This document shows, in pieces, positions 14,150-29,311 of a stretch of DNA of 32,000 nt. Each line of letters opens with the position of its first letter. The stretch's first letter is position 1. Location of the stretch: positions 150,001 through 182,000 of the forward strand of contig NZ_CP010546.1 of assembly GCF_001272835.1 (NCBI RefSeq), given 5' to 3'. The notes beneath the pieces were generated by a model. It did no database searches, was not told the DNA's origin, and worked only from the letters and a program-made list of their open reading frames with translations. Made by a program: the position numbers and the translations under genes. This stretch comes from Mycoplasmoides pneumoniae FH. Lineage in GTDB: Bacteria; Bacillota_I; Bacilli_A; Mycoplasmatales; Mycoplasmoidaceae.

Positions 14150-14345
14150 TAGCAAATGTAAGGAACAAGCTTATGCAAACTTTCAATATGTGACGTGTTG
14201 AAAAACCTTTAAGAGTATGCATCAATTGGGAGTAGGAAAGCAGGCTTTCAACACAAGTTTTCGTTTTCCTGCTCCCACTAAATAAATTGGGAAAGGTTTT
14301 CAAAGTCGCCAAAAAGATTAAATATTTTTGGAATTTTGAATTTTT
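14150..14345 (-). repeat. Decayed, inverted copy of the repeated leader module (copy e)
   Basis: 14262-14295 (cgttttcctgctcccactaaataaattggg) aligns by eye with the minus-orientation leader at 27470-27505 (gcattttgctcctccactaaataaattgacc). The uORF start is mutated (cat to cgt on the plus strand) and no downstream gene follows. Confidence 0.35.
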
Positions 14346-14450: not shown

Positions 14451-15266
14451 ATGTTTAAATTAAAAATTAACAACTTCCAATTAGGTTTCAAACTCGTTCA
14501 GTGACCAGTGACGAACCACCTTCTTAAACATTTTTACGTTTTTCCAATCAATAATAAAGGAGGTCTTGCCATTAAACGCATAATTTCACTTGCTTTGTTT
14601 AAGAAAAGACTTAACAAAGATAAGATTAATAATTGTCATGTTTGGGAAGAAGAGTTACCTGATGGTAGCTACGACATGGGATTTAATGGCAATTTCAACC
14701 ATATGGAAAAACGAAAAAGTGGTTATGTTACCCAAAAGCAGTTTAGCGAGTTCAAAGATGCCAACAATCAGCGTCTCATAAAGATTGAAACTACTTTGGC
14801 TATCCAAGGCGAACAAATCAACAAATTGACTCAAACTGTTGAAAAGCAAGGCGAACAAATCAATCAATTAGTTCAAGTTGTGCTTCTTCAGGGCGAGCAA
14901 ATTAGAGAACTTCAAGTGGAGCAAAAAGCACAAAGACAAGAGTTTAATGCCCGCATGGATCGTTTGGAAAATCTTTTGGTGGAAAGTATAGAATCTACCA
15001 ATAATCGCTTCGACTCTATGGAAAGACGTTTAGACTCTATGGATAGTCGTCTTGATTCTATGGAAAATCGCTTGGTTTCAATGGAAAGCCGTCTTGATTC
15101 TATGGAAAATCGCTTAGATTCAATGGAAGGTCGTCTTGATTCTATGGAAAATCGCTTAGATTCAATGGAAGGTTGTCTTGATTTTGTTGAAGGACGCTTA
15201 GACTCTATGGAAACTCGTTTAGACTCTATGGAAACTCGCCTGGACAAAGTCGATCCGCCCAAATAG
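14451..15266 (+). CDS. DUF16/UPF0134-family coiled-coil protein
   Basis: ATG 14451 reads through TGA 14502-14504 into track ORF 14508..15266 (271 aa). The C-terminal two thirds are heptad coiled coil (QGEQIN repeats, then RLDSMEx units) ending RLDKVDPPK. It is paralogous to the minus-strand genes at 26783 and 27595. Confidence 0.72.
14805..14930 (+). repeat. 42-bp (14-codon) tandem repeat, 3 units, inside the DUF16 gene
   Basis: The units start at 14805, 14847 and 14889 and encode [14 protein letters not shown] / [14 protein letters not shown] / [14 protein letters not shown]. Confidence 0.7.
15006..15236 (+). repeat. 21-bp (heptad) tandem repeat, 11 units, inside the DUF16 gene
   Basis: There are eleven consecutive in-frame 21-nt units encoding R(F/L)DSME-x, with minor variants such as RLVSMES and CLDFVEG. 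They are followed by a degenerate terminal unit, RLDKVDPPK. Confidence 0.9.
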
Positions 15267-15339: not shown

Positions 15340-15522
15340 CTTTCTAAAAACTTTTTGTCAATTTTGTTGGCACTTCTAAATTGCTAGTTCAATTTATTAA
15401 GTGGAGGAGCAAAATGCAAATCTTTAATTTTTGAAATTGATCAGTAAAAAATCTGATCACCGTTGGTAGCATTGCTGCAAATAGTAGTTATGTAATTTGC
15501 AAACAGAAAGGAATTTTTCAAT
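15340..15522 (+). repeat. Repeated leader module, copy a (probably part of the RepMP1-type mosaic)
   Basis: It aligns by eye with 18865-19055 (+), 27359-27545 (-) and, more weakly, 28087-28260 (-). The shared core is ttgttggcacttct..agtggaggagcaaaatgcaaatctt..attgatcag-N8-ctgatc..gttgcaagtagtagtta..agaaagga. Confidence 0.6.
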
Positions 15523-15530
15523 ATGAGTAA
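15414..15530 (+). CDS. Candidate 38-codon upstream ORF (leader peptide) MQIFNFWNWSVKNLITVGSIAANSSYVICKQKGIFQYE
   Basis: GGAGG at 15403-15407 lies 6 nt before ATG 15414. There are two in-frame TGA codons. The TAA stop at 15528-15530 overlaps the start region of the downstream ORF (ATG 15523). The frame is preserved in three other copies. Confidence 0.4.
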
Positions 15531-15804
15531 TACAAAAAAATTAAGAATAACTTCAATCGAAGAAACAATAGAAATAATAGTTAATTCAAAACTATTAGCT
15601 TTTGGTTTTTACCCAGTTGGTTTAGAAGATGGAACTTACGAACTTAATGTAAGGATTATTTTTAAAGAAAAAACTGCAGATTCTGAGAAGAGTAGCAGTG
15701 TACATCCTTTACAAAAGGAGTATTATGTAAGGGAATTTTTGAGATTTCTTGAGCGCCATAAAGATTCTCTGGCGCAACAACTATTAGTAGTAGAAGACAA
15801 TTAA
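15523..15804 (+). CDS. Hypothetical 93-aa protein
   Basis: Intact ATG-initiated ORF directly after the leader. It resembles the 68-aa ORF at 19056 weakly (shared ..EDGT.E.. core). Its TAA stop is immediately followed by the ATG of the P1-like ORF. Confidence 0.55.
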   Translation: MSNTKKLRITSIEETIEIIVNSKLLAFGFYPVGLEDGTYELNVRIIFKEKTADSEKSSSVHPLQKEYYVREFLRFLERHKDSLAQQLLVVEDN

Positions 15805-18864: not shown

Positions 18865-19055
18865 TGCTCAAATCTTTTTGCAAAGTTTGTTGTCACTTCT
18901 AAATAACCTACTCAATGTATTTAGTGGAGGAACAAAATGCAAATCTTTAATTTTTGAAATTGATCAGCAAAGCGTCTGATCCCTGTTGGCAACCGAGTTG
19001 CAAGTGTTAGTTATTTTTTAAAAAATCAAAAGAAAAAAGAAAGGAACATTTAAAC
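18865..19055 (+). repeat. Repeated leader module, copy b
   Basis: It has the same core as copy a: ttgttgtcacttctaaat..agtggaggaacaaaatgcaaatctttaatttttgaaattgatcag-N8-ctgatccctgttggcaac..gttgcaagtgttagtta..agaaagga. Confidence 0.6.
18937..19053 (+). CDS. Candidate 38-codon upstream ORF MQIFNFWNWSAKRLIPVGNRVASVSYFLKNQKKKERNI
   Basis: GGAGG precedes ATG 18937. There are two in-frame TGA codons. TAA 19051-19053 ends 2 nt before ATG 19056. Confidence 0.4.
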
Positions 19056-19262
19056 ATGAAAAAAGTTAAAGCATTAAGGAATCTTTTTTTAGAAAAAGCC
19101 AGTGAAAAACTTGAATACCCCAAAATTGCTTCAATGGTAGCTTACTTTGATCCAAAGGAAGATGGTACTTGTGAATTCATTATGAAAATTAAAACTGTCA
19201 ATGAAGTTGCTGACACTGAGACGACAAATAAGGAAAAGCCTTTAGGCACTTGAAAGAGTTAG
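19056..19262 (+). CDS. Hypothetical 68-aa protein
   Basis: Track ORF 19056..19253 extends through TGA to TAG 19260-19262. It is a weak paralogue of the 93-aa ORF at 15523. Confidence 0.5.
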
Positions 19263-26366: not shown

Positions 26367-26617
26367 GTTAGCTTTCTTAGCTTTTTTATAAAAACACCAG
26401 ATTGATATTTAGCCTTTTTGAGTTAGCTGTTCTCACTGCTTTTGGCGGTTGCTATACAGAATGAAGGTCGTTTGTAAAGGAACGTAAACTTTGCTAACTT
26501 AAAGATCTCTTTTTGGGTTTTAGGTGTTTTATTTTTGTTACATAAAATGAAGAAAAGGTTAGGAAACTACTTGCAATCAAAAAAAGCGTTTTAGGTAAAA
26601 AAAGTGCTTTGTTTCAT

Positions 26618-26650
26618 AACCACCCTTCGAGGTGGTTTTTTATTTGTTTT
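26618..26650 (+). terminator. Rho-independent terminator downstream of the ABC operon
   Basis: Stem aaccacc / ggtggtt with loop cttcga is followed by tttttatttgtttt. Confidence 0.7.
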
Positions 26651-26715
26651 ATAGCTTTGTATACGAATTCACTCTATAGATATAGGGTGCTTTTATTTTC
26701 TGGCAAGCTGAAAAG

Positions 26716-26766
26716 GGTAAAAAATACCAAAAGTTAGCAGTTAAGAAACCACTAAGAATTGGTATT
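26716..26766 (-). terminator. Imperfect hairpin terminator after the minus-strand DUF16 gene
   Basis: On the minus strand: ataccaa ... ttggtat with inner ttag/ctaa pairing, followed by tttttt. It has the same ..TTGGTATTTTT.. ending as the other module terminators. Confidence 0.4.
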
Positions 26767-26782
26767 TTGGTTTTACTAAATA

Positions 26783-27358
26783 CTATTTGGGTGGATCGAT
26801 TTTGTCTAAGCGAGTTTCCATTGAATCCAAGCGATTTTCCATAGAGTCTAAACGTCCTTCAACAGAATCAAGGCAACCTTCTATTGAATCCAAGCGATTT
26901 TCCATAGAATCAAGACGACTATCCATAGAGTCTAGACGACCTTCAATAGAGTCGAAGCGTTTATTGGTGGATTCTATACTTTCAACCAAAAGGTTTTCCA
27001 AACGATCCATGCGGGCGTTAAACTCTTGTCTTTGCGCTTTTTGCTCCACTTGAAGTTCTCTAATTTGCTCGCCCTGGATTCTTATTTGTTCACCTTGGGC
27101 AGCCAAAGTGGTTTCAATCTTTATGAGTCGTTGGTCGTTTGAGTCTTTGTACTCGTTAAACTCTTTGCGCGTTACGTATTCCGTGTTCACTGGTATAACC
27201 GGTTTGTTAAGTTTAAATTGTCTATTGAAATTGCCAGAGAATTCCACACTTTTGTTTTCTGGATTAATGATGTATCAGCCCGAAAAAGTGCCCTTTTTGG
27301 TCTTTTTCATCATCTCGTTAAATTCCTTTTCGTTATAAAACGGAATTTTCTCTTTCAT
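26783..27358 (-). CDS. DUF16/UPF0134-family coiled-coil protein
   Basis: Track ORF 26783..27247 extends upstream through TGA to ATG 27358 (191 aa). The N-terminus is [48 protein letters not shown]. The C-terminus is nearly identical to that of the plus-strand gene at 14451. Confidence 0.8.
26813..26959 (-). repeat. 21-bp heptad tandem repeat, 7 units
   Basis: It encodes [49 protein letters not shown], followed by RLDKIDPPK. Confidence 0.85.
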
Positions 27359-27474
27359 TAATAAGCGACTCCTTTCTTTTCAGTGAAATTTAAAAAGTAA
27401 CTACTACTTGCAACTCAGTTGCCAACAGGGATCAGACCATTTACTGATCAATTTAAAAAATAAAAGATTTGCAT
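27358..27474 (-). CDS. Candidate 38-codon upstream ORF MQIFYFLNWSVNGLIPVGNWVASSSYFLNFTEKKGVAY
   Basis: GGAGG precedes the ATG (plus-strand cat 27472-27474). There are two in-frame TGA codons. The stop overlaps the DUF16 start as TAATG. Confidence 0.4.
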
Positions 27475-27545
27475 TTTGCTCCTCCACTAAATAAATTGAC
27501 CGGCTTATTGAGAAGTGCCAACAAAATTGCAAAAAATTTCAAATG
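27359..27545 (-). repeat. Repeated leader module, copy c
   Basis: The reverse complement aligns with copy a from ggtatttttattcattt through the SD, uORF and agaaagga. Confidence 0.6.
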
Positions 27546-27580
27546 AATAAAAATACCAATAGCAATTTAGCCATTGGTAT
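27543..27580 (-). terminator. Rho-independent terminator between the two DUF16 genes (possibly bidirectional)
   Basis: Hairpin ataccaatggc / gctattggtat (minus-strand reading, 1 mismatch) is followed by ttttatt. A T-run is also present on the plus side. Confidence 0.6.
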
Positions 27581-27594
27581 TTTTTAGTCTACAG

Positions 27595-28086
27595 TTATTT
27601 AGGCGGATCGATTTTGTCTAAACGAGTTTCTATTACGTCGAGGCGTTTACCAAAATCAGTCAAAGTGTTTCCGATTGATTCTAGACTTTTAAGCACAAGA
27701 CTTTCAAAGCGATCCATGCGGGCGTTCATTGCTTCACCCTGGGTTTTGATTTGTTGACTCTGAACCATAACAACTTCAGTTAGTCGATCAACTTTGTCCT
27801 CAACAACTTGAATCCTTTGACCCTGACTCTTTAACTCAGTTTCAATCTTTGTAAGTTTTTGGTCGTTTGAGTCTTTGTACTCGTTAAATTCTTTACGCGT
27901 TACGTATTCTGTGTTCACTGGTATAACTGGTTTGTTAAGTTTAAATTGTCTGTTGAAACTGCCAGAGAATTCCACACTGTTGTTATTTTTATTGATGATG
28001 TATCAACCCGAAAAAGTGCCCTTTTTGGTCTTTTTCACCATGTCATGGAATTCTTTTTCGTTATAAAACGGAATTTTCTCTTTCAT
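27595..28086 (-). CDS. DUF16/UPF0134-family protein (short form without the RLDSME array)
   Basis: Track ORF 27595..27975 extends through TGA to ATG 28086 (163 aa). It has the same N-terminal domain ([48 protein letters not shown]) and ends [10 protein letters not shown]. Confidence 0.8.
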
Positions 28087-28172
28087 TAAGCAATAACTCC
28101 TTTCTGATTAAAGCGGTTCAAAAAACTACTACTTACAACTCTTTGTCATTGGACTTTTCAAAATTTGATCAT
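28086..28172 (-). CDS. Candidate 28-codon upstream ORF MIKFWKVQWQRVVSSSFLNRFNQKGVIA (diverged copy)
   Basis: AGGAG lies 10 nt before the ATG (plus-strand cat 28170-28172). There are two in-frame TGA codons. The stop again overlaps the DUF16 ATG as TAATG. Confidence 0.3.
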
Positions 28173-28260
28173 TGTTTTAATGCTCCTTACTAACTAAATT
28201 GACCCGCTTCATAAAAACTGCCAACCAAGTTCAAAAAAGTTTTTAAGCTATTTTTGCACC
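28087..28260 (-). repeat. Repeated leader module, copy d (diverged)
   Basis: It shares gtcaatttagttagtaaggagca.., gttgtaagtagtagtt and cagaaaggag with copies a-c. The GATCAG/CTGATC hairpin is absent. Confidence 0.45.
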
Positions 28261-28336
28261 AAAATGGCGTTGTCAGTCAAACTACGACAACAACAGTTGC
28301 TGTTTGATTCTTTAAACTTAAACAGAATTAGCACCA

Positions 28337-29311
28337 ATGAATAGCCAAGTACACCGCAAGGGCTCTATTGCAGAAGCAGTTAGTGCCATCCAAGCTCATG
28401 ATAAGATCGTGATCTTCCACCACATTCGTCCTGATGGCGATTGTTTGGGCGCACAACACGGCTTAGCGCGTTTAATCCAAACTAACTTTCCCCACAAGCA
28501 GGTCTTCTGTGTTGGTGATCCCAAACACAACTTTCCCTGATTGGAGATGGTTTTCACTCCAAAGGAACAGATTACCCCGGAGTTAATGCAACAAGCCTTA
28601 GCCGTTATTGTTGATGCCAACTATAAGGAACGGATTGAGTGCCGGGACTTATTAGACCAAAACCAGTTTAAGGCAGTATTGCGGATTGACCACCACCCCA
28701 ATGAGGACGATCTCAATACGACCCATAACTTCGTTGATGCGTCTTACATTGCCGCGGCTGAACAAGTGGTAGATCTAGCGGTGCAGGCCAAATGGAAGCT
28801 TAGCCCCCCAGCGGCTACGGCGCTGTATTTAGGTATTTATACAGATAGTAATAGGTTTCTATATAGTAATACATCATGAAGAACACTATATCTAGGATCT
28901 ATGCTATATAGAGCTCAAGCTAATATAGCTAAGATCCATGATGAGTTAAACCACACTTCCTTAAAGGACATCCAGTTTAAACAATATGTCTTTAAAAACT
29001 TTCAGACCTTTCAGAATGTTATTTACTTTGTGGCCGATAAGAAGTTCCAAAAGAAATTAAAGGTAACACCCTTAGAATGTGCACGGGTAAATATCCTAGC
29101 TAACATTGAACAATTCCACATTTGGCTGTTCTTTATAGAAGAGGGTAAGAACCACTATCGGGTCGAATTCCGTAGTAACGGAATTAACGTACGCGAAGTA
29201 GCTTTAAAGTATGGTGGCGGGGGTCATATTCAGGCCAGCGGTGCAGTTCTTAAAAGCAAGCGCGACATAATTCGTGTAGTTCAAGATTGCCAAAAGCAAA
29301 TTGCTGTATAA
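28337..29311 (+). CDS. nrnA: DHH/DHHA1 phosphoesterase (NrnA-type nanoRNase/pAp phosphatase); first gene of the P1 operon
   Basis: ORFs 28337.., 28541.. and 28901.. are in frame 2 and joined by TGA codons (324 aa). Motifs: HHIRPDGDCLGA, DHH (RIDHHPN), GGGGH. Confidence 0.85.

Follow-up and report, generated by a model that had tools for sequence, protein, structure and literature searches.

In the window examined here, a stretch of 32,000 nucleotides from the genome of Mycoplasmoides pneumoniae FH, a DUF16 gene of the RepMP1 family is preceded on the minus strand by a 38-codon upstream ORF (uORF), designated copy c, within a repeated leader. Comparison of the leader copies suggests that the open frame of the uORF, and not its peptide, is what has been kept, and we see about an even chance that this uORF is a translated leader cistron, the peptide of which is irrelevant, coupled to the DUF16 gene by termination-reinitiation. 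What was observed in the DNA is the anatomy of the leader and how it is conserved throughout the family, selection that keeps the frame open with no conservation of the peptide, the match to a promoter consensus and the covariation of two hairpins. Table 1 gives the coordinates of the features, which refer to the window or, where preceded by G000, to the whole genome (817,207 bp, a single contig, in which TGA encodes Trp).

Table 1. Features of the copy c leader and of related leader copies and repeated elements
Feature	Coordinates (strand)	Remarks
Terminator-like hairpin	27549..27584 (-)	15-pair stem, then T run; ends upstream DUF16 gene 27595..28086
-35 element TTGGCA	27516..27521 (-)	sigma-20-type
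Repeated 14-mer CAATTTATTTAGTG	27498..27485 (-)	position in copy c; includes the -10 element ATTTAT
-10 element ATTTAT	27491..27496 (-)	19 nt past the -35 element
Proximal SD-like GGAGGAG	27479..27485 (-)	in short 5' leader of uORF; comparable GGAG in leaders of MPN313- and MPN534-like sigma-20 genes
uORF, copy c	27358..27474 (-)	38 sense codons + TAA; ATG 16 nt past the -10 element
Hairpin 1	27430..27449 (-)	GATCAG, 8-nt loop, CTGATC; 27449-27444 pairs with 27435-27430
Hairpin 2	27410..27422 (-)	GCAAC, 3-nt loop, GTTGC; 27422-27418 pairs with 27414-27410
Distal SD AAGAAAGGAG	27369..27378 (-)	within last seven uORF codons, 10 nt ahead of DUF16 ATG
TAATG stop/start overlap	27356..27360 (-)	kept in 13/13 MKEK-type DUF16 paralogues though the 7-8 nt before it vary
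DUF16 (RepMP1 family) gene	26783..27358 (-)	191 aa; carries a 21-nt repeat array
Copy d, 28-codon uORF	28086..28172 (-)	TAATG; precedes DUF16 gene 28086..27595; promoter TTGGCA-N19-ATTTAG
Copy a, same 38-codon uORF	15414..15530 (+)	precedes non-DUF16 gene 15523..15804; 8-nt overlap ATGAGTAA
Copy b, same 38-codon uORF	18937..19053 (+)	TAA 2 nt ahead of the ATG of 19056..19262
Second repeated element	14228-14295 (-)	stem of ~11-12 bp (GGAGCAGG...CCTGCTCC) in place of the uORF
Second repeated element, genomic copies	G000, near 14547, 115974, 130339, 133726, 135579, 164289, 197055, 246763	
Second repeated element, further genomic copies	G000, near 437225, 494761, 563220, 604001, 607361, 640107, 799708	

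An earlier note on this DNA had claimed that the stop codon of the 38-codon uORF shares one nucleotide with the DUF16 start codon, and its coordinates were reproduced on the minus strand under genetic code 4. The uORF runs from the ATG at 27474-27472 to the TAA at 27360-27358 with two in-frame TGA (Trp) codons among its 38 sense codons, and the A at 27358 is common to the TAA and the first position of the DUF16 ATG. The ORF that starts there (191 aa, 27358..26783) was assigned to DUF16 by a match to PF01519 above the Pfam gathering score (123.9 bits, E=4.5e-36). The SD-like motif that the note had placed within the 3' end of the uORF was found as AAGAAAGGAG at 27378..27369. The junction shows the signature that Weber et al. 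(2023, PMC10568206) associate with termination-reinitiation, in that the stop of the upstream ORF overlaps the downstream start (27360..27356) and the SD serving that start is located within the upstream ORF. Both housekeeping TAATG junctions that the note named for comparison also exist, grpE/next ORF with ORF 5292..5945 against an ATG at 5945, and parE/parC with 6436..8343 against 8343..10712.

Among 61 genomes searched (60 relatives and this one), DUF16 scored above the Pfam cut-off in this genome only, and hence there are no orthologous leaders for a cross-species comparison. A tblastn search of the genome identified approximately 25 DUF16-like loci, 13 of which have an MKEK N-terminus. 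The earlier note had made its claim depend on most DUF16 paralogues having the overlap, which proved to be so: TTAATG is present at the start of all 13 MKEK-type genes, and in 12 of them an ATG-started ORF of 28-83 codons ends at that TAA. By comparison, the genome has 3036 TAATG pentamers, only 5.4% of which end an ORF that starts with ATG and has at least 28 codons. The TAATG arrangement at the DUF16 genes exceeds chance; since the paralogues share a common origin, the test of stop phases in diverged classes described below is a stronger argument than this junction count. The exception (G000:245954) is the sole MKEK-type gene with an out-of-frame uORF (G000:245823-245956), in which one A is deleted beside the SD (AAAAAAGGAGG) and the uORF extends 20 nt into the gene.

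The 14-mer CAATTTATTTAGTG occurs 45 times in the genome when at most one mismatch is allowed, and 32 leader copies were gathered by means of it, some of which precede non-DUF16 genes (e.g. copies a and b of the window). The uORF is open for 28-42 codons in 28 of the 32 copies; the others are one that is fused in frame to DUF16, one of 67 codons and two that are truncated. Its ATG is the first one past the -10 element in 29/32 copies. The junctions comprise 16 TAATG, 4 ATTAA and 3 TAA-ac-ATG, with the others mostly at 14 nt or less from the next start, and a 17th TAATG sits after the frameshifted uORF. Four copies are off-pattern (two truncated, one frameshifted and one fused), and some of the genes behind them may still be expressed.

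Several of these copies show how the junction has changed. The fused leader ORF is part of a DUF16 gene encoding 271 aa at 14451..15266 (+), the fusion being due to a 1-nt deletion relative to the paralogue at G000:197189, whose ORF stops at ATTAA after 41 codons; because of this deletion, the annotated N-terminus of the 271-aa protein is probably leader-derived. The truncated uORFs at G000:583066 and 781533 have 9 and 10 codons, and in the 781533 copy an internal deletion puts a TAG directly ahead of the SD. At G000:194744, 197189, 583741 and 609098 (and 164425), ATT takes the place of ATG at the downstream start and shares bases with the uORF stop in ATTAA. In 194744 and 609098, the two MKKVK-type copies for which a comparison with ATG paralogues was made, a single G-to-T exchange both abolishes the ATG and makes the uORF stop. 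These ATT-start copies could be either ATT-initiated genes or pseudogenes. At the locus of copy c, just two DUF16 genes (26783..28086) lie between ugpE and a DHH phosphoesterase gene, the order being ugp permeases, DUF16 genes, DHH phosphoesterase gene and P1-type adhesin sequence; such an arrangement agrees with the S1-like (type 2) one, with a fused mpn138/137, of Musatovova et al. (2012, PMC3472980).

Evidence that the uORF is kept as a reading frame came from the distribution of stop trinucleotides over its first 20 codons, which are largely dissimilar across 12 diverged classes of leader. The counts by phase were 0/17/14, with none of the 31 stops in the uORF phase, corresponding to P=(2/3)^31=3.5e-6, or roughly 1e-5 to 1e-4 once segments common to classes are discounted; these values are optimistic because paralogues are not independent. 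Apart from the two truncated copies, almost all have one or more stops in each of the alternative frames, and the indels within classes are of 3, 3 and 6 nt. Variable columns within classes were distributed over the codon positions as 15/20/17 of 134 each, i.e. with no third-position excess. The N-terminal halves of the peptides are unrelated between classes and the C-terminal halves are alike, the final residues being the SD read as Lys-Gly-Gly, and the copy c peptide gave no Pfam match. The phase bias and the in-frame indels, together with the lack of a third-position excess, demonstrate that the open frame is conserved and the peptide is not. Judging from these patterns, the open frame is under selection, and hence probably so is translation of the uORF. 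A protein variant from other assemblies, P0002, consists of the copy c peptide with residues 20 and 24 changed towards the copy b type and the frame kept; this looks like a short, frame-preserving gene-conversion tract between leader copies.

Other roles for the uORF were considered and rejected. A functional peptide was set aside on account of the codon-position pattern and the divergence of the classes. A programmed frameshift joining the uORF to DUF16 was discarded on the grounds that there is no slippery site, that the stop is conserved and not avoided, and that the one natural fusion is a 1-nt deletion. An attenuation-type leader peptide (as in trpL or ermCL) was dismissed for want of a conserved peptide, of a terminator between the uORF and the gene and of an Rfam match.

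The SD inside the uORF reads AGAAAGGAGG in most copies and AAGAAAGGAG in copy c, and is complementary to the 3' tail of the 16S rRNA (CCTCCTTTCT); since the 16S rRNA ends in ...CACCTCCTTTCT, AGAAAGGAGG is a perfect 10-nt complement. These leaders account for 19 of the 21 genomic occurrences of this 10-mer; another degenerate leader has one, and the rRNA gene supplies the last. For M. pneumoniae, Weber et al. (2023, PMC10568206) reported that an SD is present in 3.2% of leading genes as compared with 28% of the downstream genes of TAATG overlaps, proposed that the SD at such overlaps enhances termination-reinitiation, and observed that SD strength was without effect on translation efficiency, both overall and in leading genes. 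By these SD and TAATG statistics, the DUF16 arrangement corresponds to an internal coupled cistron and not to a leading gene. The SD core is predicted to pair for the most part with a run of pyrimidines upstream of it (the probability of its being unpaired is 0.08 for copy c and ranges over 0.01-0.7 among the copies), to which little weight is given because the prediction was not controlled against shuffles.

Two hairpins within the uORF were supported by an alignment of 17 copies. The helix of hairpin 1 is 88% paired, with two pairs altered on both sides, and that of hairpin 2 is 94% paired, with an exchange of A-U to G-C in 7 copies. For both hairpins combined, 90.9% of the cells in the alignment pair as compared with 82.6±1.3% in shuffles (0/500 as high), pairing falls to 15-43% when the partners are slid, and four pairs change on both sides; this covariation is regarded as moderate support because the events are few and the copies related. 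The hairpins show a constraint at the RNA level, and some of the conservation of the sequence may be due to it. The fold of the whole leader is no stabler than its shuffles (z=-0.30), a global RNAalifold analysis of all classes gave no consensus and left just the two local hairpins holding up, and an Rfam scan of 26500-28400 yielded nothing near the gathering score. No terminator or alternative-hairpin architecture was found between the uORF and the DUF16 gene in copy c.

Since the upstream gene is ended by an intrinsic-terminator-like hairpin (the terminator scan found 3 sites versus 0.9 expected in shuffles), the leader would start a new transcription unit. A scan of the minus strand before the uORF for sigma-70-type promoters gave no match. 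The promoter of sigma-20 (MG428/MPN626) has the form TTGGCR-N18/19-ATTYAT in M. pneumoniae, with TSSs immediately downstream (Torres-Puig et al. 2015, PMC4446450), and TTGTCA-N18/19-ATTWAT in M. genitalium (PMC4446450; PMC6105099). The sequence TTGGCA-N19-ATTTAT at 27521..27491 matches the M. pneumoniae consensus exactly. Genome-wide there are 28 exact matches to TTGGCR-N18/19-ATTYAT, as against ~1.4 expected from composition: 13 are in uORF-type leaders, about ten are before a second repeated element, and five belong to orthologues of the known regulon members MPN014, 313, 534, 571 and 614. Once TTGTCA and TTGACA are admitted, 20/32 leaders match the promoter. The promoter sites also have like flanks, with a T-run ahead of the -35 element, 'CA' ahead of ATTTAT and GGAG in the leader. 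The distance from the -10 element to the uORF ATG, 16 nt in copy c, is 15-17 nt in 21/32 copies, which is the spacing at recA, MG_220, MG_390, MG_414 and MG_525 (PMC4446450, Table 1). A sigma-20 promoter before MPN143 had already been proposed (Torres-Puig et al. 2018, PMC6105099); it is the leader copy at G000:190387, and the 179-codon ORF behind it is DUF16-like.

An ORF of 172 aa at G000:C1 ~752821-753339 (+), adjoining a ptsI-like gene, contains a sigma region 4 of the ECF type (Sigma70_r4_2, PF08281, 27.4 bits, above cut-off) and is presumed to be the orthologue of MPN626 (sigma-20). MPN626 is reported to be silent in culture, and MPN410, the gene of which is preceded by one of these leaders, reaches ~260 copies per cell in culture. 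Because some DUF16 proteins (MPN410) are made in culture where sigma-20 is silent, sigma-20 cannot be the sole driver, and other promoters or read-through must also feed some of the copies. Contigs from four RNA runs were broken up at the repeats and gave no molecule ends. Our literature search found no publication naming both RepMP1 and a sigma factor.

The second repeated element lies behind the same sigma-20-type promoter, mostly in the form TTGGCG-N19-ATTTAT, and 10 of its copies are exact matches. It is often divergent to a class-C leader, the two being ~135-150 bp apart. Small RNAs that depend on sigma-20, of the kind reported for M. genitalium, may be its products.

That the uORF is translated at all seems likely to us. 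The leader ORF mpneu19790, ahead of the DUF16 gene in the MPN038 region, was Ribo-Seq positive, and mpneu10646, a long variant of the leader ORF, was flagged by both ProTInSeq and RanSEPs (ProTInSeq paper, Supplementary Data 10, PMC10920889). uORFs of the MQIF class, to which copy c belongs, are absent from the list of 302 SEPs of PMC10920889, and one MQIF copy is given in RanSEPs Dataset EV3 (PMC6385055) with a score of 0.21, RNA below threshold, no MS detection and the label 'repeated'; this absence from the lists is weak evidence because repeats hamper mapping. The published M129 small-ORF peptides match ORFs of the present genome at nearly the same coordinates. Public protein collections contain the exact copy c peptide, from 451 contigs and with no name shown, and thus some pipelines call the uORF as a CDS.

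We propose that 27521..27356 (-) is one copy of a repeated RepMP1/DUF16 expression cassette, which would consist, in order, of a sigma-20-type promoter, a 5' leader with GGAGGAG, the 38-codon ORF with its two hairpins and strong SD, and the TAA/ATG overlap. From this anatomy we infer that the transcript starts at the sigma-20-type promoter, giving a 5' leader of roughly 10 nt if the TSS is just past the -10 element, that the copy c uORF is the first translated cistron and that DUF16 depends on it. Ribosomes would enter at the 5'-proximal AUG, opening the hairpins and the pyrimidine:SD pairing, and would terminate at UAAUG, where SD:anti-SD contact would hold them for reinitiation on the DUF16 AUG. 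A handover of ribosomes from the uORF to DUF16 is probable, and on a real dependence of DUF16 translation on the uORF our judgment is evenly balanced. The wider proposal, that the RepMP1 leader is a sigma-20-driven, uORF-gated cassette turned on with recA/ruvAB in rare recombination-competent cells, DUF16 being made mainly by reinitiation, is put forward tentatively, as a possibility worth stating.

The same leader could be read as a non-coding, structured 5' UTR combined with a recombination repeat (the RepMP1 short repeats), in which DUF16 initiates on its own SD and the uORF is an inherited by-product, either untranslated or inconsequential. With a strong SD 9-10 nt from the DUF16 ATG, independent initiation is possible; the two covarying hairpins, the uORF peptide that is not conserved, the MQIF copy with its low RanSEPs score and no detection by MS, and the description of sRepA and sRepB as recombination substrates are all in line with such a leader. 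However, 0/31 stop trinucleotides in the uORF phase over 12 diverged classes, the in-frame indels, the fixed distance of the ATG from the -10 element and the TAA kept though the preceding spacer varies speak against it, as does the report that SD strength is without effect on the translation of leading genes in M. pneumoniae. We consider this explanation plausible but rather unlikely.

The conserved hairpins within the ORF and the mostly paired SD core predicted for copy c (unpaired probability 0.08) would also suit a conditional gate, whereby the progress of ribosomes via hairpins 1/2 or the internal SD sets either how stable the mRNA is or the supply of ribosomes to the DUF16 start, with an effect that could be negative or condition-dependent. 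The lack of terminator or alternative hairpins between the uORF and the gene, the lack of a conserved stalling peptide and a whole-leader fold at z=-0.30 relative to shuffles make a gate of this kind improbable. Finally, a uORF that encodes a functional small protein would be consistent with its being called as a CDS in public collections and with the C-terminal halves that are alike between classes, but it is contradicted by the absence of a third-position excess, by N-terminal halves that are unrelated between classes, by the absence of a Pfam match and by last residues that are merely the SD as Lys-Gly-Gly; we give this explanation hardly any chance.

The putative coupled leader cistron resembles the TAATG + SD operon junctions (Weber et al. 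2023, PMC10568206; Huber et al. 2019) in its one-base TAA/ATG overlap and in having an SD within the last codons of the upstream ORF, and it comes from the same organism. It differs from them in that the upstream partner is not an ordinary operon gene but a 28-42-codon ORF with no conserved peptide, present in ~30 copies directly behind a promoter. With the sigma-20 promoters (PMC4446450, PMC6105099) the leader shares the exact consensus, the N19 spacer, the T-rich tract ahead of the -35 element and a start codon 15-17 nt past the -10 element; unlike the sigma-20 regulon, it has no orthologue among the M. genitalium members, it exists in ~20-30 copies, its first ORF is a uORF and not an annotated gene, and its sigma-20 dependence is putative. 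The positions of the leaders match those of the RepMP1 short repeats sRepA/sRepB (Forsyth and Geary 1996; Musatovova et al. 2012, PMC3472980), which are specific to M. pneumoniae, measure 55-77 nt and lie between genes on the flanks of mpn130 and mpn137-139; the available text of PMC3472980 describes them as recombination substrates, with no promoter, uORF or coupling role. Small-ORF catalogues (RanSEPs, PMC6385055; ProTInSeq, PMC10920889) include the leader ORFs mpneu19790, mpneu10617, mpneu11174, mpneu10646 and mpneu03205, but list them singly as candidate small proteins or as 'repeated', with no leader function at the level of the family, and the ProTInSeq authors stated that upstream regulatory smORFs had not been described in M. 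pneumoniae (PMC10920889). The sigma-20-type promoter on the leader, the hairpin covariation, the census of copies and the phase and codon-position tests are new here.

No gene family of M. pneumoniae is larger than DUF16/RepMP1, which has no assigned function. If a translated leader is the first cistron and the DUF16 gene the second, this would explain much of the odd minority of 'leading genes with an SD', and the annotated expression signals of these genes would need to be re-read. The sigma-20-type promoter provides a testable hypothesis for the timing of expression of the DUF16 family and, if the dependence on sigma-20 is true, the known sigma-20 regulon in M. pneumoniae would grow several-fold. 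Should the cassette reading also be true, ~30 DUF16/RepMP1-associated genes and ~15 hairpin RNAs would be switched on together with recA/ruvAB, which would tie the DUF16 family to the recombination and gene-transfer programme.
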